Virus record (IMG/VR): IMGVR_UViG_2909262264_000005
Source of the DNA: a virus
Lineage: Duplodnaviria; Heunggongvirae; Uroviricota; Caudoviricetes
DNA length: 64,000 nucleotides
Direction: 5' to 3' (one strand)
How positions within the stretch are numbered: the stretch's first letter is position 1; each line of letters opens with the position of its first letter. The notes beneath the pieces were generated by a model, which was not told where the DNA came from, made no database searches, and was given only the letters and a program-made list of their open reading frames with translations. Positions 698-53,589 of this stretch are shown here, piece by piece. The translations under genes and the position numbers were made by a program.

Positions 698-1060
698 GGG
701 GCTGATTCTGGATTCGACGGGATTTGCGAAACCCAAGGTGCATGCCGAGGGGCGGTTGGCCTCGTAAAAAGCCGCAAAAAATAGTCGCAAACGACGAAAA
801 CTACGCTTTAGCAGCTTAATAACCTGCTTAGAGCCCTCTCTCCCTAGCCTCCGCTCTTAGGACGGGGATCAAGAGAGGTCAAACCCAAAAGAGATCGCGT
901 GGAAGCCCTGCCTGGGGTTGAAGCGTTAAAACTTAATCAGGCTAGTTTGTTAGTGGCGTGTCCGTCCGCAGCTGGCAAGCGAATGTAAAGACTGACTAAG
1001 CATGTAGTACCGAGGATGTAGGAATTTCGGACGCGGGTTCAACTCCCGCCAGCTCCACCA
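698..1060 (+). ncRNA. ssrA: tmRNA (SsrA)
   Basis: Starts GGGGCTGATTCTGGATTCGACGG, ends GGGTTCAACTCCCGCCAGCTCCACCA; internal tag reading frame gcaaacgacgaaaactacgctttagcagcttaa encodes ANDENYALAA-stop. Confidence 0.95.
1034..1060 (+). repeat. 27-bp att core at ssrA 3' end (left junction of tandem prophage array)
   Basis: cgggttcaactcccgccagctccacca is repeated exactly at 45414-45440 next to an integrase gene. Confidence 0.75.
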
Positions 1061-1577: not shown

Positions 1578-2162
1578 TTACATTGTGTCTGGTCCTTCCG
1601 GCCACTCAATATCAGGTGCAGTTGATGTATCAACACGGTTCAGCAACACCCGATACTTCTTCCAGGCTTCCAGCAACGAGTTTTCTTCCTCCGTTGCAAT
1701 TTCCAGATCTGCAGCATCCTGAAGCGGCGCAATATGCTCACTGGCTACCTGCATCAGGTTGTTTTTTGTTTCTTCCGCCTCCCGGATCCGGAACAGTTTT
1801 TCTGCTTCCGTATCCTTCACCCAGGCTGTGCCGTTCCACTTCTGAAACTCCCCTTCCGGCGATAACCAGGTAACATTTTCCGGTAACGGACCGAGTTCAG
1901 AAATAAATAACGCGTCCCCTGACGCTACGTCATAAACCGTTTTACCCCGATGGTCTTCAACGAGATGCCACGATGCCTTATCACTGTTGAAAACAGCCAC
2001 AAAGCCAGCAGGAATATCTGGTGGTGCAATATCGGTACTGTTTGCTGGCAGACCTGTATGAGGCGGAATATATGCGTCACCTTCACCAATAAATTCATTA
2101 GTTCCGGCCAGCAGATTATAAATTTTTATGGTCCGTGGTTGTTCACTCATTCTGAATGCCAT
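1578..2162 (-). CDS. Tail fibre assembly protein (Tfa)
   Basis: 194-aa ORF directly downstream of the tail fibre gene; near-identical copy at 49601-50185. Confidence 0.8.
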
Positions 2163-26740: not shown

Positions 26741-26815
<75 letters not shown>

Positions 26816-36775: not shown

Positions 36776-37005
36776 GGGCGCTCCTCCTGCACATCAGCCA
36801 TGAGCATTTTGCTGGCTGTTTCCAGCGCCTGGTCGGCGCTAATTTGCATGACAGCCAGTGAATGAGGAACAAAAGCACCGGCATATTCTGTTTCACTGGT
36901 GGCGTGTTTATGCGCCATATCTGCGATAACAGAGATGTCAATCAGTGCATCCATCAGGGTTTTAATTACCGTAACAGAGGTGTCTGAATAATGGTTATTA
37001 CACAT
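36772..37005 (-). CDS. Hypothetical protein (77 aa)
   Basis: ATG at 37005 preceded by GGGAGG. Confidence 0.45.
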   Translation of the reverse strand: MCNNHYSDTSVTVIKTLMDALIDISVIADMAHKHATSETEYAGAFVPHSLAVMQISADQALETASKMLMADVQEERP

Positions 37006-37363
37006 GGCGCGCCTCCCATTGATTACGGCGAAAAGCGGTGTGACTGAGGCTGGTTTCTGCCTTATGGAATGCTTCAATACAGCTCTCGTAGTACCGCATT
37101 GTGCGCAGACTTAACCCAAGCTGAAGCATCATCAGGCCGTCAAGGGTGATGTAATAACCACGCAGGGAATCGCCATACACGTGGTAAGTACCCGGTATGA
37201 AATTACGGGAGAAGAATTCACGCGAGCAGTTCAAATACTCGATTTTGTCGACGATGTTCTGGTGCATGCGCTTAAAGTGGCAGGCAACATGCAGGGAGAA
37301 AATAACAGCTTTGCCGTTGACGACTTCAATTTTGAGGAATGAGTGGGTTGGGACTGTAGCCAT
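36998..37363 (-). CDS. Hypothetical early protein (121 aa)
   Basis: ATG at 37363 preceded by AAGGAGG; the listed 221-aa ORF upstream extension lacks an RBS and is low-complexity. Confidence 0.5.
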   Translation of the reverse strand: MATVPTHSFLKIEVVNGKAVIFSLHVACHFKRMHQNIVDKIEYLNCSREFFSRNFIPGTYHVYGDSLRGYYITLDGLMMLQLGLSLRTMRYYESCIEAFHKAETSLSHTAFRRNQWEARHV

Positions 37364-37526
37364 GATGGCAACCTCCTTGAGCAGTGAAAGACTTCCACCA
37401 CCGGAGGTTCCAAGCTCGCTGGTGGCGGACTGAACAGGGTTGGAACTACCGGCGCTCAAGGAAACCGGCGAGCCTTTCGGCTCCCCTGCCCAGCCCACCA
37501 TAATTCTGGCGTGCGCGAGCATGGAC

Positions 37527-37552
37527 GATAAAAAAGACGCTGGCGCGTCGTA
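37527..37552 (-). terminator. Intrinsic terminator within early-right operon (tR1-like)
   Basis: Minus-strand gacgcgccagcgtc hairpin followed by ttttttat. Confidence 0.5.
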
Positions 37553-37752
37553 TATCGCCTCGAGCAATTCCGGGGTTCCAATCCCGGCACCCGCTTTATA
37601 AGGTGCCGGAACAGTGTAACGTCCCGAAATTGCAGAATCAATATTTAGGCTTGAAACATTCATATGCTTACTGGTATTTTTACTAACGCAAATGTTCTTG
37701 GATGTTACTGGCTTACTTCTTTTGTGAAGTTGCCTTTACTAACGTTGAGCGA

Positions 37753-41923: not shown

Positions 41924-42099
41924 ATATTAAGAAGAATATAATTCTTCCGTTTTTTACTAACCGTTTATATGAAAAGCAACCGTGAATTAAGCAGAGTAAA
42001 ACTGCTTTTAATCCTTGCCACAGTACTGACACTAACAGAAATCATTATTCTCTTTATTGCGCTGTCAGTCAGTTAAAAATATCGGGATGCAACAAACCA

Positions 42100-42288
42100 A
42101 TGAGATTGTATTTCAGAATAGTAATTTTACTGGCAATTATCGCATGCATTTACGGACTACTCGTCCCGTTCCTTATATCCATGAAGGATACGGTAGCAGT
42201 CATTTCCGGCTTTGCACTGGCGTTTCTGACCCCGCCCTGCATTTATGCCATTTACAAGGGTCTTTCTTTCACTAAGGGTAAAAGATGA
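42100..42288 (+). CDS. Small membrane protein (62 aa, two predicted TM helices)
   Basis: Hydrophobic segments ILLAIIACIYGLLVPFLI and ISGFALAFLTPPCIYAI; stop overlaps start of SPFH gene. Confidence 0.5.
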   Translation: MRLYFRIVILLAIIACIYGLLVPFLISMKDTVAVISGFALAFLTPPCIYAIYKGLSFTKGKR

Positions 42289-43112
42289 AAAAGGTTATTT
42301 TTGCTTTAGCCATTGTTCTTCCGACCATTGGCCTTGTCGGTTGCGATCGCGTTGAACCAGGTAATGTTGGCATCAAGGTAAATAAACTGGGCGACGACAA
42401 AGGCGTCGGTGAAGTGGTTGGCGTTGGCCGCTACTGGACCGGCTGGAATACTGAAGTTTACATCTTCCCGACCTTCAAACAAATGAAGACCTACGATGAA
42501 CCGTTCAGTTTCCAGATGAGTGACGGTACAACCATCGGCTATCACATCGGCGTGGCCTACAAAGTTGACCCATCCAAAGTTACCACGGTGTTTCAGACCT
42601 ACCGCAAAGGCGTGGATGACATTACCGACACCGACCTGCGTCAAAAGATCGCCGACGCACTCAATCGACTGGCCAGCAAAATGACCACCGACAAATTTAT
42701 CGACGGCGGGAAGTCTGAACTACTGGATGCAGCTCTTAAAGACATTCAGGAGGAAATGACACCCATCGGTATTCAGGTAATGAGCCTCTCATATGTGGGT
42801 AAGCCGGAGTACCCGTCAACCGTTATCGACAGCATTAATGCCAAAGTCACGGCGAACCAGAAAACACTGCAGCGCGAGCAGGAAGTTAAACAGCGCGAAG
42901 CGGAAGCCAACATGTTGCGCGCGGAAGCTGCCGGACAGGCTGATGCGATTCGCACAAAAGCCCAGGCCGAAGCCGATGCTATTCGTTTACGCGGTGAAGC
43001 TCTGCGCCAGAACCCCGGTGTTATGGAGCTGGAAGCCATCAATAAATGGAACGGCACACTGCCGCAATACATGACCAGCGGTGCAAATACACCATTTATC
43101 CAGGTTAAATAA
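42285..43112 (+). CDS. SPFH/band-7 domain lipoprotein
   Basis: Lipoprotein signal with lipobox LVGC; SPFH-like core; C-terminal coiled coil (QREQEVKQREAEANMLRAEAAGQADAIRTKAQAEADAIRLRGEA). Confidence 0.7.
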   Translation: MKKVIFALAIVLPTIGLVGCDRVEPGNVGIKVNKLGDDKGVGEVVGVGRYWTGWNTEVYIFPTFKQMKTYDEPFSFQMSDGTTIGYHIGVAYKVDPSKVTTVFQTYRKGVDDITDTDLRQKIADALNRLASKMTTDKFIDGGKSELLDAALKDIQEEMTPIGIQVMSLSYVGKPEYPSTVIDSINAKVTANQKTLQREQEVKQREAEANMLRAEAAGQADAIRTKAQAEADAIRLRGEALRQNPGVMELEAINKWNGTLPQYMTSGANTPFIQVK

Positions 43113-43149
43113 CTTATATGCCCGGCAGGCCGCCGGGCTAAGGGAAATG

Positions 43150-43512
43150 CAGATGAACACCCAGAATACTCAACCGCAAATAATGAACTATGACCCGAAT
43201 CTGACGTCATGCGGACGCATGGCAAAACAAACCGTTCGATTAACTTTCGGACTATGGGAATACCGCGAAACATTCGAAGTTACTGTCGGCGGCAATCTGA
43301 CCGGACTGGATGTTATCAGTTGCGCTATTGAAAGCCTGTACGAAACGCTGCCTTATGAAGAAGTCGAGGATGAGCGCGATATCATAGCCACCATTAATAT
43401 CGGCGGACTGGAATGCAAGGATGAAAACCTGTCCGGAGAGCTCTGGCTTGCCGGGATGCTTATCTCAGCAGAAATTATCAGTATTGAACCCGCTACAAAC
43501 ATACAGCTCTGA
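43150..43512 (+). CDS. Hypothetical protein (120 aa)
   Basis: AAGGGA RBS; preceded by stem-loop gcccggc-aggcc-gccgggc. Confidence 0.5.
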   Translation, partial: QMNTQNTQPQIMNYDPNLTSCGRMAKQTVRLTFGLWEYRETFEVTVGGNLTGLDVISCAIESLYETLPYEEVEDERDIIATINIGGLECKDENLSGELWLAGMLISAEIISIEPATNIQL

Positions 43513-43543
43513 AGTTCTCACTATTCAGAGAGCAGGAGAAAAA

Positions 43544-43786
43544 ATGTTCGCTTTGATTAATCAAGGGCAACTGTATACCGACAGTGCCGGTTACCCGATA
43601 AAAATTATTCGCTGCATAAACAACACTGTGTTGTACAGAAGAATGGATGGGCGAACACAGTCGGTAAAAATAAACGATTTTAATGAACTGTTTGAACGGC
43701 TCGATCACCAGGAATACCGACAAATTCTGGCAGAAACAGAACAGGAAACTCATCTGAAAAAATTACGGGCCATGAAAAGGAAATAA
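43544..43786 (+). CDS. Small prophage protein (DUF4222-like, tentative)
   Basis: 80 aa; AGGAG 6 nt upstream of ATG. Confidence 0.5.
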   Translation: MFALINQGQLYTDSAGYPIKIIRCINNTVLYRRMDGRTQSVKINDFNELFERLDHQEYRQILAETEQETHLKKLRAMKRK

Positions 43787-43789
43787 AGA

Positions 43790-43936
43790 ATGAATAAAGC
43801 GTTTGAGCTATGGGTACGCCAGCGTTACGGCAATCGCTATGACCTGACGCGAGATGTTGACGGTTTCTACTGCCGTGAAATTGTGAAACGAATGTTTGAA
43901 GTGTGGTGCCACTGCCGTGGGCTGAATGTTGTATGA
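43790..43936 (+). CDS. Small Cys-containing ORF (48 aa, uncertain)
   Basis: MNKAFELWVRQRYGNRYDLTRDVDGFYCREIVKRMFEVWCHCRGLNVV with plausible RBS. Confidence 0.3.
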   Translation: MNKAFELWVRQRYGNRYDLTRDVDGFYCREIVKRMFEVWCHCRGLNVV

Positions 43937-43944
43937 GGTGAACT

Positions 43945-44154
43945 GTGGGGCTGGATTGCGTACCTATATCAACCTACTGCCGCAACGCAGGAGAAACGGT
44001 TGATGCCGTTAACAAACGGATACAAAGAGGAATATGGAAAGAAGGGGTACATGTATTAAAAGTCGACGGAGTTAAAGAACGTTGGGTCGACTTAATGGAG
44101 ATTACAAAATGGGCAAGAAAGAACAAGGATCATTATCTCTCCCTAGAGGAGTAA
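43945..44154 (+). CDS. xis: Excisionase (Xis-like)
   Basis: 69-aa basic protein with GTG start after GAGGTG; overlaps integrase start. Confidence 0.6.
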   Translation: MGLDCVPISTYCRNAGETVDAVNKRIQRGIWKEGVHVLKVDGVKERWVDLMEITKWARKNKDHYLSLEE

Positions 44155-45281
44155 CTATTCGGCAGCATAAAACTGGTAGCACTCTGGTTATCACTTTTAC
44201 ATATAAAGGGGTTCTGTGTCGGGAGCCCCTCTCCAGAATGGAAGTAAACGCGCGCGGTGTGAAGTACGCAGAACGTCTGCTGGGAGAAATAAAAAATCAG
44301 ATTATCGATGGTACCTTCGAATATGCAAAATACTTCCCCAACTCCCAAAAGCTGGAGTTGTTCGGGGGAGTGAAAAAAAACAAAAATATAAAATCTTATC
44401 TGGATGAATACCTGATTATCTGCCAGAACCGTAACCTGTCACCATCGACAATTAGAGGTTATGAAAAATGCTTGTCGGCGCTGTCAGCATTGCATAAATT
44501 TCATGTATCAGAACTGACACCTGCTGTACTAAAAAACTGGATCGCCAGCAGAAAAACAAAACTGAAAACGATCCGCAATAATCTTTCGTTTCTGCGCAGC
44601 GCCATAGATGAAGCGGTGACCGATGGTTTGTTAACAATAAATCCTGTCACGCTAGTCAGCGCCAGCCGGTATCACGTATTGGACAACACACCAGGCAGTG
44701 GTGATTACGAGGTCGATCCCTTTACACCAGCGGAGACGGCAGCAATCTATGACGCCTGTCATTACCCGGAATGGCGAAATCTGTTTCGCTTTGCCTTTAA
44801 TACCGGACTGCGTAGCTCAGAATTGTGCGCGTTGCGCTGGACGGATATAGACTTCATCGGCAACACCGCGCATGTTCAAACTGCAAGCGTAGTCGGGGTA
44901 ATCAAAAGCACCAAAACAAAAGCCGGCACCCGCAAAGTGCAACTGAACAGCGAAGCGCTGGCGGCTCTTCAGGCACAAAAGCCCTACACGGCGCTAAAGA
45001 GCGACTTCATATTCAGCGATCCGAAAACTCGCGCTCCTTGGGCAAACGCAGATGCGATCCGAAAAAAAGCCTGGGTACCAACCCTTAAAAAAGCTGGTGT
45101 ACGCTATCGCAATCCGTACCAGACACGCCACACGTTCGCCACACGGCACATTAGCCAGGGCGTTAACCTGTTCTGGCTTGCTGGTCAGATGGGACATAAA
45201 GGACCGGAAATGCTGTTCAGACATTACGGCTCTTACCTTGCAGAATACGATGGAAAAACGGCGATTTCTGCAGCCCCGTAA
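44109..45281 (+). CDS. int: Tyrosine integrase
   Basis: C-terminal catalytic residues in ...RHTFATRHISQGVNLFWLAGQMGHKGPEMLFRHYGSY; sits beside the att core at 45414-45440. Confidence 0.9.
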   Translation: MGKKEQGSLSLPRGVTIRQHKTGSTLVITFTYKGVLCREPLSRMEVNARGVKYAERLLGEIKNQIIDGTFEYAKYFPNSQKLELFGGVKKNKNIKSYLDEYLIICQNRNLSPSTIRGYEKCLSALSALHKFHVSELTPAVLKNWIASRKTKLKTIRNNLSFLRSAIDEAVTDGLLTINPVTLVSASRYHVLDNTPGSGDYEVDPFTPAETAAIYDACHYPEWRNLFRFAFNTGLRSSELCALRWTDIDFIGNTAHVQTASVVGVIKSTKTKAGTRKVQLNSEALAALQAQKPYTALKSDFIFSDPKTRAPWANADAIRKKAWVPTLKKAGVRYRNPYQTRHTFATRHISQGVNLFWLAGQMGHKGPEMLFRHYGSYLAEYDGKTAISAAP

Positions 45282-45413
45282 CGGCAAAATATTTCAAAAT
45301 GTTGTACAGAATCAGGACGTTACCGGGACAACAATATGTACGTAAAATGCACATAATTCATTGTTTGAAAAAATAAATCGTTCATATTCAGTAAATTAGA
45401 TTAATCACGATCA

Positions 45414-45440
45414 CGGGTTCAACTCCCGCCAGCTCCACCA
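45414..45440 (+). repeat. 27-bp att core (junction between prophage A and prophage B)
   Basis: Exact copy of ssrA 3' end; flanking sequence resembles the phage arm next to ssrA. Confidence 0.75.
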
Positions 45441-45570
45441 ATCATGATTGGACGGTGTAAGGACAACACCAACAAAAACAGGAAGTTAGCAGTCTCAGCA
45501 GGACACCGACCAGACGGTGAGGAGACAAAAAAGGATACGCAAAGGAGCCGCGGCTCTCGAGTGACACAAA

Positions 45571-45598
45571 AGCCCGCTTATGCGGGCTTTTTGTTTTT
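45571..45598 (+). terminator. Intrinsic terminator
   Basis: agcccgc-ttat-gcgggct followed by ttttgttttt. Confidence 0.55.
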
Positions 45599-45674
45599 CC
45601 CTTAAGTTCCTAGCCGCTTATCTATAACTATGGAAAAATGTTAACCCTGACTGTATGTTAACAAAGGGATGTAT

Positions 45675-46883
45675 ATGTCGGTTTTTCATAACTGGCTGCT
45701 TGATATCGCAAGCGGGAATTACTTTATCTACATCAAACGCCTTTCTGCAAACGACACAGGCGCAACAGGTGGCCATCAGGTCGGACTTTATATCCCCTCA
45801 AATATCGTTGAAAAGCTTTTTCCATCTATCAATCATACTCGCGAACTGAACCCTTCAGTCTTCCTTACTGCGCATGTATCATCCCATGATTGCCCTGATA
45901 CCCAAGCACGCGCAATTTATTACAACAACCGTTATTTTGGTAAGACCCGAAACGAAAAAAGAATTACGCGCTGGGGGAGAGGAAGTCCATTACAGAACCC
46001 TGAAAATACAGGAGCCCTCACAATTCTTGCTTTCAGGTTAAACGAACAGAACACTGACTGTTCCGAGGTAGATATATGGGTCTGCGTCAATCCCGATGAA
46101 GAGGATATCATCGAGTCTGCTATTGGCGAAATCATACCTGGAACCCTAATTTCCGGCCCTGCCGGACAAATTTTGGGCGGATTGTCTCTTCAGCAAACTC
46201 CAGTAAATCATAAATATGTTATTCCTGAAGACTGGAAGAAGCGTTTTCCTTCTGGAAACGAAATTATTCAATATGCTGCTGGCCATTATGCTAAAAACTC
46301 CAAGGATCCAGATGAGCAACTGATTGACCGTCGGCGTGTCGAGTATGATATTTTTCTACTCGTCGAGGAATTACATGTTATTGATATTATTAAGAAAGGA
46401 TTCGATTCTGTAGATGAGTTTATTGCATTAGCCAACTCTGTCAGTAATCGACGTAAATCAAGGGCAGGCAAATCACTTGAACTTCACCTAGAGAAGCTTT
46501 TTATCGAGCACGGACTACGGCATTTCTCCACTCAGGCAGTTACTGAAGGTAATAAAAAACCAGATTTCCTGTTTCCTTCAGCAGAGGCATATCATAACGT
46601 TGAATTTCCTGTAGAAAACTTACGTATGCTGGCAGTAAAGACCACCTGCAAAGATCGCTGGCGTCAGATACTGAATGAAGCAGATAAAATCCATCAGGTA
46701 CATTTATTTACACTGCAAGAAGGTGTTTCTTCAGCACAATACCGAGAAATGAAAGATGCGGGTGTCAGACTCGTTGTACCATCAACTTTACATAAAAAAT
46801 ACCCAGAAGCAGTTAGAGAAGAATTAATAACGCTCGGAGCATTCATTACTGAGCTGATAGAGCTTTACGCTGAACTATCATAG
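45675..46883 (+). CDS. Type IIE restriction endonuclease, EcoRII-like (predicted CCWGG specificity)
   Basis: 402 aa; N-terminus MSVFHNWLL...YIKRLSANDTGATGGHQVGLYIP recalled as EcoRII effector domain; C-terminal PD-(D/E)xK motif (KPDFLF ... VENLRMLAVKTTCK). Confidence 0.8.
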   Translation: MSVFHNWLLDIASGNYFIYIKRLSANDTGATGGHQVGLYIPSNIVEKLFPSINHTRELNPSVFLTAHVSSHDCPDTQARAIYYNNRYFGKTRNEKRITRWGRGSPLQNPENTGALTILAFRLNEQNTDCSEVDIWVCVNPDEEDIIESAIGEIIPGTLISGPAGQILGGLSLQQTPVNHKYVIPEDWKKRFPSGNEIIQYAAGHYAKNSKDPDEQLIDRRRVEYDIFLLVEELHVIDIIKKGFDSVDEFIALANSVSNRRKSRAGKSLELHLEKLFIEHGLRHFSTQAVTEGNKKPDFLFPSAEAYHNVEFPVENLRMLAVKTTCKDRWRQILNEADKIHQVHLFTLQEGVSSAQYREMKDAGVRLVVPSTLHKKYPEAVREELITLGAFITELIELYAELS

Positions 46884-46888
46884 GCTGA

Positions 46889-46911
46889 CTCCCGGCTTAA
46901 AAGGCCGGGAG
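46889..46911. terminator. Bidirectional hairpin between convergent R and M genes
   Basis: ctcccggc-ttaaaag-gccgggag. Confidence 0.45.
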
Positions 46912-46917
46912 ATGTTC

Positions 46918-48351
46918 TCAAGGCTGCCCAGTCTTACCAGCATCAGCAGAAACAGCTTTGAGGATATAGGGTTCCAGAAGTCTGGCAACAGCTTCAAATA
47001 CTGGCACCACAACTGAGTTACCGAACTGCCGATATGACTGAGTATCTGAAACCGGAATACGGAATGGTTTCCCTCCAGGTTTTTCAAATCCCATAAGGCG
47101 TGCGCACTCTCGGGGAGTCAGCCTGCGTGGTCGACGAGCCTGATTACTCTCATTCATAAAGTCAGCCTCTCCCGTTGCCATATCCCAACCACGATCAATA
47201 AGAATTTCTGATCCGTCTTTGTGATATCTGGCAGAAAGTGTGCGTGCAATGCTTTCCTTATTCTCAGGATTGACCAACCCAAAGCCAAAACCATTCCCCT
47301 TGGCTGCATGCTTTTTGGCGTAGTTATAAAGGTACTCCCATAGTTTTGGCGTAAGTATATATTTACTGTCGACTACAGGCTCCAGCAATTCACCAAATGA
47401 TGGGCGGTGTTCCGGATAAAAACGACTGATATCACGCAAGGTAAACCCCTTGTGAATATTCAGATCTCGTCTAAATCCGACCAGAACAATACGTTCACGA
47501 TGCTGAGGCAAAAAATGCTTCCCATCGATAATCTTTGGATCGTTTTTTCCCATTTCTGCAGCATCGGCAACTTCGTAGCCCAGCTCGTCAAGGGTCTCCA
47601 TAATGACTTTGAAAGTTTTACCCTTATCATGGCTCTTCAGATTTTTGACATTTTCCAGCACAAAAATTGCCGGTTTTTTTGCTCGTATAATACGTGCCAC
47701 GTCAAAAAAAAGTGTTCCTTGTGCTTCACATTCAAAACCATGCGCACGACCAAGTGAGTTTTTCTTACTAACACCAGCAAGGCTAAATGGCTGGCACGGG
47801 AACCCCGCAAGAAGCACATCATGATCCGGCACATGCTCATCAATATATGCATAAGCATCCGTTTCCAATACATCGGTTTTATCACTCAGCGTGACTTCCC
47901 GAATATCGAGATTGAATTTATGCACCTGTTCATCGTTAAACCAGTTGGCCTTGTATGTACGCACAGCATCTTTATTCCATTCACTGGTAAAAACACACTG
48001 GCCTCCAATGGCCTCAAAACCTTTCCGTATCCCTCCAATTCCAGCAAATAAGTCAATGAAGCGGAAAGCATATTCCGGATGGTTTGCAGGTGGTTCTGGT
48101 AGCATCTTACGCAGAAGAGACTCTTCTACTGAAGTCAACGATTTTGGTAAACACTTGCCATTAATCCAGCGGTTAATGGTTTCACGGCTCCACTCATTTT
48201 TTCCGACTTTTCTCAGTAATTCAGCCACATACTTCTGATCATAGATTTCCAGCACTTTCTCGATAAGCTTTTTATCATTTTCCTGTCGCAGCTTTTCTTC
48301 CGCCTCGGCTTCCTTCAGCAGATGCTGTGCCAACACTTCAAATTCAGACAT
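46918..48351 (-). CDS. DNA cytosine-5 methyltransferase, Dcm / M.EcoRII-like
   Basis: 477 aa from ATG 48351 (GGAGG RBS); motif [14 protein letters not shown] catalytic motif ([11 protein letters not shown]), ENV (FVLENVKNL); recalled as highly similar to E. coli Dcm. Confidence 0.9.
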
Positions 48352-48712
48352 AATTCCTCCAAGGGGTCTAATGGGTGAAACTTTATCACTCATTCAACCC
48401 AGAAGGAAATGTTTTATCTGGATATTTAAACAGTGACTACAACGTAATCTAGCACTGGTGATGCTTTGTTAGGCATAGAGAATCATTCTATATACGACTA
48501 ATGACAGAAAAACAGCAGACAAGTAGTTTGTTCATAAATTAACGCATACTATGTGTCTACGGTTTTCGAGACCGGTCCAATCATCAAACGAAACATAAAA
48601 TTAGCTCACATTATGAGGAAAAGTATCTTTTTTGTACTATGTAAATTCAAAGGCTTAGCCTCATTTCTCCGATGGTTTTCTCAACACTACTGGTTGTGAG
48701 CCCTTGCAATGA

Positions 48713-49531
<819 letters not shown>

Positions 49532-49553
49532 GTCTTTAAGTGATAAGCATAAA

Positions 49554-49598
49554 CCGCAGCACGTCATGCATACGTCGTGTCTGCGGTTTTTCTTTTTT
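49554..49598 (+). terminator. Hairpin terminator between cargo island and tail genes
   Basis: ccgcagcacgtc...gacgtgtctgcgg followed by tttttcttttttg; homologous hairpin in prophage A at 1531-1575. Confidence 0.5.
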
Positions 49599-49600
49599 GC

Positions 49601-50185
49601 TTACACGGTGTCTGGTTCTTCTGGCCACTCAATATCCGGTGCAGTTGATGTATCAACACGGTTCAGCAACACCCGATACTTTTTCCAGGCTTCCAGCAAT
49701 GAGGTTTCTTCCTCCGTTGCGATTTCCAGATCTACAGCATCCTGAAGTGGCGCAATATGCTCACTGGCTACCTGCATCAGGCTGTTTTTTGTTTCTTCCG
49801 CCTCTCGGATCCGGAACAGTTTTTCTGCTTCTGCATCTTTCACCCAGGCTGTGCCGTTCCACTTCTGAAACTCCCCTTCCGGCGATAACCAGGTAACATT
49901 TTCCGGTAACGGACCGAGTTCAGAAATAAATAACGCGTCCCCTGACGCTACGTCATAAACCGTTTTACCCCGATGGTCTTCATCGAGATGCCACGATGCC
50001 TTATCACTGTTGAAAACAGCCACAAAGCCAGCAGGAATATCTGGTGGTGCAATATCGGTACTGTTTGCTGGCAGACCTGTATGAGGCGGAATATATGCGT
50101 CACCTTCACCAATAAATTCATTAGTTCCGGCCAGCAGATTATAAATTTTTATGGTCCGTGGTTGTTCACTCATTCTGAATGCCAT
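49601..50185 (-). CDS. Tail fibre assembly protein (Tfa)
   Basis: ~96% identical to the prophage A copy. Confidence 0.8.
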
Positions 50186-53100
50186 TATGCAAGCCTCACA
50201 ATATAGTTAAATGCGATGTTTTTGACGGTGTTTTCCGCGTTACCAGCAGCGTTAACGGTGATGGTGTGTCCATGTGAACCAATCGCAACGGAGTGCGTAT
50301 GAGCACCAATACCGACAGTATGCGCGTGTGCACCTGCAGATGCTGCTGTGCCGGACAGTGAATGGCTATGATTACCATCTGTACTGGTATTCGCTAACCA
50401 CCCCGTAGACATACCTACTGAGCCTTGTACACCCCAGGTATTTTGACCTGAGCTTGTATAACCATATTGATAAGTATCTTTAAAAACACTGGGGTTAAAT
50501 CGACGGCCATCTCTATGGCTGTGATTACCAGCTGCATTCGTGCTGCCACTTAAACTATGGGTATGCGCACCAGTGTTATTCGTGGATTTAGTGCCGTAAT
50601 CAAACGACGATGTGGTTTTCGTCCCCAAATCCGTACTGGATGCGCTGGCGCTGTGGGTATGCGATTTAATGCCATCCTGTTCCTGAGACAATACGGCACG
50701 ACCACTGGCGGGCTTGCCCTTAATCGTCCAGCCACGCAAATCAGGGATCACGCCTGACGGATAAGCGGCAGCAAGTTTCGGGTAGGCAGATTTGTCAAAA
50801 GTCTGCCCCTGCATCAGGGCATAACCAGACGGAACGGTATCTGATGGCCACGGGATTGGTGCGCCGACTGGGTAGCTTTCTGGTGGAAGATTTTTCGAGG
50901 TATAAACTTCTGCCCAGTCTTCCTCAAAACCATAGCCATCTCTTGAAGAACGGTAGAACAGACCACCATTTCTGTAATGCGCCTTCATCTGCAGGGTCCG
51001 GCAACTTCCGACTCCGGTATAGAAGTTAACCAGAATATAGCTGTCGCCAGAGCGGGTGACATTGTAAGCGCCTGATTCGGCATTCCAGGGAACGCCACCA
51101 TCCGCATCGGCATATGTATCCGTTGCCCTTCTGGCAAAAGCAGCCACATGCGCGGCGGTTAAAGTAATATCTTTGGAACCATCAAACTCAACACCAGAAA
51201 CCAGTCTTGGCGTTTGCAGCTTTGTTGCTGTTAATGCATTACCGTTCAGACTTGCGGACAGTTTGGTTCCAATAACCAGTTCGCCGGTTGCGTTATCAAT
51301 AGCAAACGGTCTTAATGTATTCCAGCCACCATAAACATCACCTTGATTGGTAAGCAGCAGGTAAGTTTTAGCGCCATCATTACGCCATAATGCCCCATAC
51401 TCCCCACCTATCATTCGAATCTGATTACCACCACGCGCTACAATTTCGTCTGTGGCAAAAAGTTTTTTGCACGACAAGTTATCGTTAACGATTAACGAAT
51501 GAGACTCATAAAAACCACGCCCACTCTTAAAATCAAGGATAACGTCCGCCGCGATACATTCAGTCGCCGGATTTGTTGCCCCAAACTTATAGGTCGTATC
51601 ATTAACAACGAGATCAGCACCAGGTGCGGATATTGACAGGCCATCTTCGATAAACGCAAAAACAGGGAAAGCAGCGCCATCAACATAGAACACAGAGCGC
51701 AAATCATCGCCCTTATTACTCATCATTATTGAGTGGATGGCTCGTTCATTGTTTTGATATTGCCAGAACATTCCATAAGCATAACGCCCCCTGTCAGTCC
51801 AGCCACCAGGCATAACAAATCCGTTAAACTCGCAGTTATTCATCGGATCGCCTGCGGTTCGCGGTGCCGTGGTGATAATGACCCTTGATGCCAGTTCGCT
51901 TACTGAGCCAGCAGAACGCATAACAACAACAGGGTAATATTTTCCAGATGTTGCACCTGCAGGAGCGTTAACCCGCACATAACGCATACCACGCTTATCA
52001 GCAAAGTCTGTTTTACTGACCGCGTTAATGTTGTTCAGGAAGCGTCCCTTATCGGGTATATCAGCGCCGTTCTGGTCTTTCTGCAGACGTTTCTCTGCAT
52101 TGTCATAGGCTGATTTTACTGCCTTTGGCGTTGCCGCCAGCGTTTCAGACGTACTGTTGGTCGCACTGCTGAGCTGTACTATCCCCTTTTTCGTCGTACT
52201 TGCATCCTCAAGCGCCACGGCGGATGCAATATCCTCTGCCCGTTTAGCTGCTGTCTCGGCGCGCGTTGCCGCGGATTCCGCCGTACTTTTGCTCTGTGCT
52301 GCCGCCGTCGCACTGCCAGCTGCCTCTGTCGCCTTCGTGGATGCTGTCGTGGCGCTGCCCTTCGCTGCTGACGCCTGTCTGGTCGCCTCATCTTTTGAAG
52401 CAGACGCCGATGATGCCGATGACGCCGCCGAACTGGCGGACGATGCGGCAGCCGTTTTTGAGGATTCTGCGCTGGTTTCCGACGCTTTCGCGTTCGTCTC
52501 GGATGTCTTCGCTGCGGAAGCAGACCTCGCTGCTGCACTGGCCTGTTCAGTGGCTTCGCCAGCCTTCGTTGTGGCTGTTGAAGCGGACGATGCGGCGCTT
52601 TCTGCCGATTTTCCGGCGGCGCTAGCACTGGCTGAGGCCTGCCCGGCACTTGTTGACGCGGCACTGGCAGATGATGCAGCCGCTGTTTTTGAGCCTGCCG
52701 CAGCTGAGGCACTCTGTCCCGCTGCCGTTTCAGAAGACTTAGCGTTCGTCTCGGACGTTTTTGCCGCCTTCGCAGAATTTGCTGCCGCCGTTGCCGAGGA
52801 AGCGGCACTACTGGCGCTTGATGATGCGTTCGTTTCTGATGATTTCGCTGCCTCTTTTGAGGCCGCCGCATCCCGGGCTGAGGTGGCAGCTTCTGACGCC
52901 TTCGTGGTCGCGGCGGATGCAGAAGTGGCTGCAGATTTTTGTGACGCTGCCGCATTCGTTTCTGACGTTTTCGCGGCACTGGCACTGGTAGCTGCCGCGC
53001 TTTTTGAGGACTCTGCAGCAGCAGCACTTTTCGATGCTTCAGTGGCCTTTGTTGATGCCGTTCCTGCGCTGGAAGACGCCTCCTGAGCCGAAGTCGCGGC

Positions 53101-53589
53101 CTGTCCGGCTGACGTGCTGGCTGCACGCGCTGAGCCTGCAGCATCAGTCGCATGGGTTGCCGCCTCACGGGCAGATGTGCCGGCATCGCCGGCTGACTTC
53201 TTCGCGGCTGCCGTGTTCTGTGCCACCGCGGACGCGTTACGCGCCACCTCTTCCACCATCAGTTCAAAACGGCGCAGAGCCTCCGGACGGGCATCATCCT
53301 CCGTCATGGCACCGAGAAAATCATTCAGCGTACCGGGTCGGGAATCTTCATACACGGTGATGGTCCCGGCATGTGACGGCGGGAATCCTTCCACCAACAG
53401 AATAACGCTGTACTGACCGTACTCAACGTCCATGCTGTAACGCCCGGCTTCATCCGGATTTTCTGAGGCCAGCGTGTTCACCACCACCGTGGTGCTGTTA
53501 CGTTTTGCTTTCAGCTGGATTGTGCAGTTCTGTACCGGTTTTCCTGTGCCGTCTTTCAGTACACCTGAAATCTTTACTGCCATATTCAC
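50185..53589 (-). CDS. Side tail fibre protein
   Basis: 1134 aa; shares N-terminal Ala-rich rod and C-terminal His-rich region with the prophage A fibre but has a different central segment. Confidence 0.85.

Follow-up and report, generated by a model that had tools for sequence, protein, structure and literature searches.

An EcoRII-type restriction-modification pair and a CMoRE nuclease gene form a probable defence cassette carried as cargo by an ssrA-integrating temperate phage

It has been reported that the EcoRII endonuclease is an autoinhibited dimer which is activated by effector DNA, works with base flipping and is blocked by 5-methylcytosine (5mC) (Golovenko et al., PMC2770665), and that its partner methyltransferase, M.EcoRII, represses its own gene through a fused N-terminal domain (EcoSal review, PMC12707154). 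A temperate-phage restriction-modification (R-M) module of the CCWGG family, made up of EcoRII-C, Vsr and methylase genes, has been described in Burkholderia phage KL3 and was read as phage cargo (PMC3091744). CMoRE, the renamed PD-T4-3 protein, degrades DNA containing 5-hydroxymethylcytosine (5hmC) or glucosyl-5hmC, spares DNA with plain cytosine or 5mC, and protects against T-even phages (PMC12923530); its activity was also demonstrated in a native host (bioRxiv 10.1101/2024.12.20.629700), as was the activity of a homologue (PMC12366544). Here, the whole 64,000-nucleotide stretch of the tailed-phage record IMGVR_UViG_2909262264_000005 (Caudoviricetes; called the window below) was analysed, in which genes of these types lie next to each other. 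A functional EcoRII-type (Type IIE, CCWGG) R-M pair together with a CMoRE gene very probably makes up a defence cassette of about 4 kb, carried as cargo by a temperate phage that integrates at ssrA.

A preliminary description of this DNA had proposed a convergent pair of open reading frames (ORFs) of 402 and 477 amino acids (aa), namely an EcoRII-like Type IIE endonuclease (R) and a Dcm-like C5-methyltransferase (M). Both were found in the ORF list where it had placed them. The third defence gene, CMoRE/PD-T4-3, had not been noticed then and is an addition of the present analysis. The elements of the cassette are as follows:
45675-46883, plus strand: R gene, encoding a Type IIE restriction endonuclease of the EcoRII family with 402 aa (404 aa if read from the ATG at 45669).
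46889-46911, unstranded: hairpin CTCCCGGC-TTAAAAG-GCCGGGAG with an 8-bp G+C-rich stem, read from the sequence, in the 34-bp gap between R and M.
46918-48351, minus strand: M gene, encoding a C5-cytosine methyltransferase of the M.EcoRII type (477 aa) whose N-terminal part is a DNA_meth_N regulatory domain.
48352-48574, minus strand: DNA preceding M, presumed to be its promoter/operator; the module with R and M only ends on the right at 48574.
48758-49531, plus strand: CMoRE/PD-T4-3 gene, GIY-YIG type IV modification-dependent endonuclease, 257 aa, in a module of about 48575-49589.

The second ATG (45675) was taken as the start of R, as in RefSeq annotations of near-identical (99.5%) loci, for example the 1209-nt coding sequence of Escherichia coli SA186. 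In the R protein both Pfam domains of the family were detected at full length, EcoRII-N (PF09217) at residues 18-165 (E 4e-61) and EcoRII-C (PF09019) at residues 229-393 (E 4e-71), giving an N-terminal B3-like effector domain followed by a C-terminal PD...K catalytic domain. The closest solved structure was that of crystallised EcoRII (PDB 1NA6, E 6e-243), to which R aligned over its full length, without gaps across 403 residues, at 85.9% identity (effector domain 85%, catalytic domain 86%). The PADLOC profile REase_II also matched R (E 3.5e-233), and no NCBIfam model was found for it. The functional residues published for EcoRII (Golovenko et al., PMC2770665) were then compared one by one. 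The active-site residues E271, D299, K324 and E337 were all identical in R, with their local context kept; the same was true for the CC:GG readout residues N260, K328, D329 and R330 (4/4), the pocket of the flipped base R222, E225, Y226, F229, R265 and A266 (6/6), and the base and phosphate contacts of the effector domain N28, H36, Q37, Y41, R81, Y85, K92, T93, R94, E96, R98, T100 and R101 (13/13). All 27 published functional residues were thus retained, and none of the 58 substitutions fell on them. On the grounds of the 86% identity and this conservation, R is predicted to cleave as a Type IIE enzyme, which needs extra bound sites and is blocked by 5mC at the inner cytosine.

With the plasmid EcoRII gene of pACN001-A as reference, the ratio of nonsynonymous to synonymous divergence (dN/dS) of R was 0.05 at a saturated dS of about 1.6. 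R is therefore under strong purifying selection and was kept functional across a long divergence. The exact 402-aa protein was present on at least 1000 contigs (3748 index blocks were matched, and the contig figure is a lower bound).

The M protein contained the Pfam domains DNA_meth_N (PF18284, E 7e-27) and DNA_methylase (E 5e-78) and scored 927.4 bits for the NCBIfam subfamily PRK10458 (NF007772), for which the cutoff is 710. An in-frame ATG upstream, at 48393, would extend it to 491 aa; homology to M.EcoRII favours 477 aa, and the RefSeq coding sequence in the near-identical (99.5%) SA186 locus is 1434 nt long. The motifs FxGxG, PCQ and ENV that had been named in the preliminary description were all present, motif I being FAGIG at residue 102, motif IV PCQ at 185 (catalytic Cys186) and motif VI ENV at 233, accompanied by motif VIII QHRER at 283 and motif X GNSV at 444. 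Judged by its sequence, M is an M.EcoRII-type enzyme, being 90.6% identical to plasmid M.EcoRII (WP_001288435.1) and 66.3% identical to K-12 Dcm, and an assignment as a Dcm orthologue was rejected for this reason. It is predicted from the 90.6% identity to methylate the inner cytosine of CCWGG. M, too, is under strong purifying selection (dN/dS 0.034 at a dS of about 1.6), and 1000 or more contigs likewise carry the exact protein. The plasmid EcoRII loci share about 82 bp of the DNA preceding M (similarity extends to about 48433). The stop codons of R and M are 34 bp apart, and the hairpin between them is presumed to act as a bidirectional transcription stop.

As had been stated before, no vsr-like gene was present: a tblastn search of the whole window with K-12 Vsr gave only noise (best E 3.2). 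Thus the arrangement of the chromosomal dcm-vsr locus is absent here, the gene downstream of M being the convergent endonuclease. A vsr gene would not be needed in the cassette, because the host has one. The GIY-YIG gene at 48758-49531 was considered as a Vsr substitute and rejected, its product being 97% identical to a characterised hmC-dependent nuclease.

It is highly improbable that the specificity of the pair drifted away from CCWGG. Such a drift could be imagined since 14% of the endonuclease and 9% of the methyltransferase residues differ from the characterised enzymes; however, none of the 58 endonuclease differences lies at a published DNA-contact or pocket residue, and residues 180-299 of M carry just 2 substitutions relative to M.EcoRII, with about 9 more from there to motif X (residue 444).

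For the third gene, the PADLOC profile PD-T4-3 aligned residues 1-256 of the product with profile positions 1-255 of 256 (E 7e-139), and the crystallised protein of E. coli O157:H7 (PDB 9U75) matched at E 7e-170 with 249 of 257 residues identical (97%). The Pfam domain LEM-3_GIY-YIG was found in the product, and the GIYxY-YIG tyrosines Y17, Y19 and Y31 were present in the translation; NCBIfam yielded no model for CMoRE. Since CMoRE is indifferent to 5mC, it is compatible with the neighbouring methylase.

The position of the cassette was determined from the attachment (att) sites and the phage genes on both sides. The relevant elements are listed below:
698-1060, plus strand: intact ssrA (tmRNA) gene (ARAGORN; Rfam tmRNA, 295.8 bits), whose last 27 bp (1034-1060) are the att core of both prophages.
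44082-45281, plus strand: tyrosine integrase of prophage 1 (left-hand), with Pfam Phage_integrase and Arm-DNA-bind_2 domains, outside the cassette.
45414-45440, plus strand: second copy of the ssrA 3' end (CGGGTTCAACTCCCGCCAGCTCCACCA), 100% identical to 1034-1060, a hybrid att between prophages 1 and 2.
45441-45595, plus strand: phage-supplied ssrA downstream arm of 155 bp, with an intrinsic terminator hairpin at 45568-45591 and a T-run (terminator scan).
49601-50185, minus strand: tail fibre assembly gene (tfa) of prophage 2 (Pfam Caudo_TAP), the first structural gene past the cargo slot.

The junction of two tandem prophages in the preliminary description proved to be real, marked by the exact 27-bp ssrA repeat with phage structural genes on both sides. 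Prophage 1 (about 1061-45413) is a complete lambdoid prophage with tail fibre, J, tape measure, capsid, portal, terminase, DnaB and Ash/Rha genes, and its integrase is 69% identical to that of the cassette-bearing SA186 prophage. Prophage 2 (right-hand), also lambdoid, runs off the window and is ordered as att arm, R, M, CMoRE, then tail-fibre assembly, tail-fibre, Lom-like and J genes. The repeat at 45414-45440 is the left end of the block common to all other cassette loci, and the arm next to it matches the attP or 'tmRNA pseudogene' region of Escherichia phage LLS (92% identity) as well as the sequence that follows ssrA in about 4300 E. coli genomes (90-95% identity). R is co-oriented with the ssrA-type terminator and lies directly downstream of it. 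Homology between the two prophages starts at 49552 (49552-50865 against 1529-2842, 97.9% identical), and the slot from att to tfa, which is 468 bp long in prophage 1, extends over 4.1 kb in prophage 2. The cassette of about 4 kb therefore occupies the att-proximal cargo slot of prophage 2. No claim on the order in which the two phages integrated is made, as it cannot be deduced from this arrangement.

Carriage in other genomes was counted in 5426 complete E. coli genomes. The R-M pair was present in 260 of them (about 4.8%) and the whole three-gene block in 243, and the CMoRE gene in any context, such as beside pinE and without R-M in O157:H7, in 821. The tandem junction itself (query 42000-47000) was in none of the 5426, no hit covering 80% or more of the query. 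In E. coli SA186, a prophage of the type of prophage 2 stands alone, with the order ssrA-R-M-CMoRE-tfa-stf-J...int, two small genes and then a repeat of the ssrA 3' end (35 nt, 97% identical, including the 27-bp core). HS13-1 has the same layout and integrase, and att repeats bracket the element. Because the att repeats of both strains enclose the cassette, it lies inside the prophage. Furthermore, the circular record NZ_CP081704.1 (locus L017; 43,680 bp) is a whole temperate-phage genome with terminase, portal, capsid, sheath, baseplate, lysis, Q, repressor and integrase genes, in which the order is integrase, DinI-like gene, att arm, R, M, CMoRE, acyltransferase and tfa. This order indicates that in the excised phage the cassette forms a cargo region adjacent to int-attP, which may be likened to the b region of lambda.

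The interpretation given in the preliminary description was thus borne out in all elements that the sequence could test, and these results refine the placement. Prophage cargo at a junction of prophages was correct as far as it went, but the cassette belongs to the slot of the right-hand prophage and stands directly beside ssrA in other genomes, so the 'junction' merely reflects a second phage using the same att site. An independent chromosomal island fixed at ssrA, which prophages just adjoin, would also account for a position directly after smpB-ssrA in 10 of 10 sampled contexts and for the differing phage backbones that follow (lambdoid tails, or Mu-like baseplates with a pin invertase). 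We give this explanation very little credence, since in SA186 and HS13-1 the cassette is enclosed by the att repeats of the prophage, with no second att copy between it and tfa, and is carried beside int on the 43.7-kb circular phage genome; it also accompanies an att arm at a non-ssrA locus in NZ_CP104634.1, and in the window an ssrA-using phage has moved both it and prophage 2 to a distance of 44 kb from ssrA.

Comparison of loci also revealed the modular structure of the slot. The block 45414-49589 was common to eight sampled loci at 99.5% identity, there preceding a pin invertase and a Mu-like baseplate, and the R-M-only sub-block 45414-48574 was shared at 99.9% with loci L007, L008 and L016, which then diverge. 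The att-proximal slot is thus a variable cargo site. The guanine-cytosine (GC) content was lower in the cassette (0.436 in the R-M pair, 0.426 across 45600-49560) than in prophage 1 (0.508) or the remainder of prophage 2 (0.544), in agreement with the AT-rich island described before (0.43 against 0.51-0.54 in the flanks). Both this contrast and the modular breakpoints support the separate acquisition of the cassette that had been suggested, and the breakpoints in other loci are the stronger evidence. Three features of prophage cargo of the moron type are found here, namely location inside att repeats, a slot variably filled in relatives, and deviant composition; expression from the repressed prophage would be a further one.

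Two side observations concern this slot and block. In L007, L008 and L016, an alpha/beta-fold hydrolase gene follows the R-M module in the place of CMoRE (4968-5747 in L016). In NZ_CP104634.1 (locus L004, 15001-19176), the whole block with an ssrA-type att core is found away from ssrA, on a 30-kb record labelled as plasmid which also holds the chromosomal ecp/pao genes and pinE; this placement could reflect an assembly error or the relocation of a prophage fragment.

Because all three products are nearly identical to characterised proteins, a mechanism can be proposed for them. M would place 5mC on the inner cytosine of CCWGG, and its N-terminal domain would repress its own promoter. The R dimer, autoinhibited by its N-terminal effector domains, would cut an unmethylated CCWGG only once further unmethylated sites are bound, flipping the central A:T pair and reading the CC:GG halves through K328-D329-R330, and 5mC at the inner cytosine would block both R domains. 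CMoRE would cut DNA with 5hmC or glucosyl-5hmC while sparing C and 5mC. In a lysogen expected to express the cassette and be protected by it, plain-C CCWGG DNA and hypermodified-cytosine DNA would both be attacked, and self DNA marked with 5mC would pass.

Several results weigh against this interpretation. The dcm-vsr locus was found in 5358 of the 5426 genomes (98.7%), and its ubiquity in E. coli has also been stated in the literature (PMC4659465). Since it is near-universal, most E. coli-grown DNA arrives already methylated at CCWGG, and the defensive benefit of R may be small. CCWGG was not avoided in the prophages, the whole window containing 141 sites against 119 +/- 9.7 expected from dinucleotide-preserving shuffles (1/100 reaches 141), a slight over-representation; the lack of avoidance is consistent with DNA pre-methylated by the ubiquitous dcm-vsr, and the cassette island itself holds just 2 sites, too few to interpret. 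A scan of 45300-49700 revealed no convincing sigma-70 promoter ahead of R (9 hits against 8.9 expected from shuffled sequence), and the similarity to plasmid EcoRII loci begins only 14-18 bp 5' of the R start codon (45657-45674), the sequence further upstream being unrelated. The promoter of R is thus not common to plasmid EcoRII. Finally, no close homologue of the cassette genes was found among the isolated phages of INPHARED in DNA and protein searches.

The lack of a clear R promoter in the scan would suit another explanation, in which R is silent or decayed and M is an orphan methylase with which the phage protects itself against EcoRII-bearing hosts, for example those with IncN-type plasmids. 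Such phage-borne enzymes are common, the SA186 prophage has two other methyltransferase genes, and EcoRII R-M systems are frequent on enterobacterial plasmids, where matches of about 80% identity were found to hundreds of plasmids (658 plasmid records). However, the R reading frame is complete, none of the functional residues has been lost, dN/dS is 0.05 with dS saturated, and at least 1000 contigs have retained the identical protein, so that this explanation has only a slight chance of being right. A working pair remains the favoured interpretation, in which restriction by R should be directed mainly against DNA from Dcm-negative sources or under-methylated DNA. The preliminary description had suggested that the island could influence which phage DNA is restricted; this influence is probably narrow, because dcm-vsr in 5358 of the 5426 genomes makes most E. 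coli-grown DNA CCWGG-methylated.

The same methylation bears on the idea that the pair is mainly a selfish addiction module, whereby loss of the prophage dilutes the methylase and the leftover endonuclease kills the cured cell, stabilising the prophage. EcoRII has been cited as a post-segregational-killing system and Dcm as a host protection against EcoRII (PMC3424554), and the cassette travels on mobile elements, plasmids and phages alike. However, the number of dcm-vsr genomes means that at least 192 of the 260 carriers are also Dcm-positive, so the same sites are methylated and the killing should cancel; moreover, the pairing with a bona fide anti-phage nuclease fits a defence island. Addiction as the main role is therefore considered unlikely.

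Within the defence interpretation, a more specific proposal is that the pair and CMoRE are a selected two-arm 'cytosine-state gate', which moves as one block (45414-49589) between unrelated temperate phages via the int-attP-adjacent slot. This is put forward tentatively, as a possibility we rather doubt. If it were true, one arm would kill plain-C CCWGG DNA and the other hmC/ghmC DNA, so that only DNA marked with 5mC would pass, and the phage methylase would be selected despite host Dcm, either to mark fast-replicating phage DNA fully or to establish the phage in Dcm-negative hosts.

As to its significance, the restriction enzyme to which this intact system is closely related is among the best studied, and the system is a well-understood kind in an uncharacterised allele. 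RefSeq already lists its exact proteins with generic names, about 4.8% of complete E. coli genomes have them, and as a discovery the system matters little. Related RefSeq records are WP_000110239.1, with the close alleles WP_000110237.1 and WP_000110238.1, and WP_001288444.1; the R of the window differs slightly from the SA186 protein. No paper describing the cassette locus was found in the literature on EcoRII with ssrA, prophage or O157. What the locus contributes is the documentation of EcoRII-type restriction as temperate-phage cargo in E. coli, as compared with the plasmid-borne textbook system, the recurrent physical pairing of an EcoRII-type R-M with the recently characterised CMoRE nuclease, and a natural setting in which to ask why CCWGG restriction persists where Dcm pre-methylates nearly all resident DNA.

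Some further features of the two prophages were recorded. Rfam IS009 matches lie inside both tail-fibre assembly genes (1621-1819, minus strand, 223 bits; 49644-49842, minus strand, 229 bits). In prophage 1, a C4 antisense RNA (84 bits) and an isrK Hfq-binding RNA (63 bits) are adjacent at 37418-37606 (minus strand) within the Ash/Rha-family ORF 36998-37663, a region that looks like a P1/P7-type antirepressor control region. A tRNA-Gly(TCC) gene is located at 26741-26815 (minus strand) inside the same prophage, and in the related HS13-1 prophage the corresponding place in the late region is occupied by four tRNA genes (L016 30684-30993). At its integrase end (42285-43786, plus strand), prophage 1 has an ORF for an SPFH-domain lipoprotein-like product (42285-43112) and, after it, DUF5406 and DUF4222 ORFs; these may be cargo on the other side of attP. 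In the tail-fibre gene of prophage 2 (50185-53589, minus strand), positions 52000-53500 have a GC content of 0.60-0.63 with long Ala/Ser/Thr-rich repeats and are a sharp outlier in the window.

Among described systems, the plasmid EcoRII system (R.EcoRII, PDB 1NA6/3HQF/3HQG; M.EcoRII, e.g. WP_001288435.1 of pACN001-A) is the nearest. In both, the genes converge across a gap of 33-34 bp and encode 404 and 477 aa, the endonuclease has two domains of the same kind, and the methylase carries the N-terminal regulatory domain; protein identity is 86% (R) and 91% (M), while DNA identity is about 79-81% and synonymous divergence is saturated. The two differ in location, the window pair being on a phage or chromosome at the ssrA att site and EcoRII on plasmids, and in their surroundings, since the window pair is linked to CMoRE whereas the pACN001-A locus has a different 'restriction endonuclease' neighbour. 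CMoRE itself adjoins pinE without an R-M pair in O157:H7 genomes, whereas here and in 243 genomes it forms one block with the EcoRII-type pair.

The module of phage KL3 resembles the window system less. Its enzyme matches only the catalytic half of R (residues 169-395, 39% identity), and its three genes, including vsr, are co-oriented in a P2-like phage of a different host, unlike the convergent pair without vsr described here. PspGI and Ecl18kI, Type IIP enzymes of the CCGG family, share the catalytic fold and base flipping with the C-terminal domain of R and gave weak matches (E 4e-4 and 2e-4); however, they have no effector domain and hence are not Type IIE, and Ecl18kI reads CCNGG. K-12 Dcm belongs to the same methyltransferase subfamily as M (NCBIfam PRK10458, 66% identity), presumably with the same CCWGG target, but it is an orphan that overlaps vsr at the yedA-yedJ locus and has no endonuclease, whereas M has a cognate endonuclease and no vsr. 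The window system thus departs from the chromosomal dcm-vsr arrangement, and as far as sequence can tell it carries every feature of the EcoRII endonuclease family and of the M.EcoRII-type methylases.

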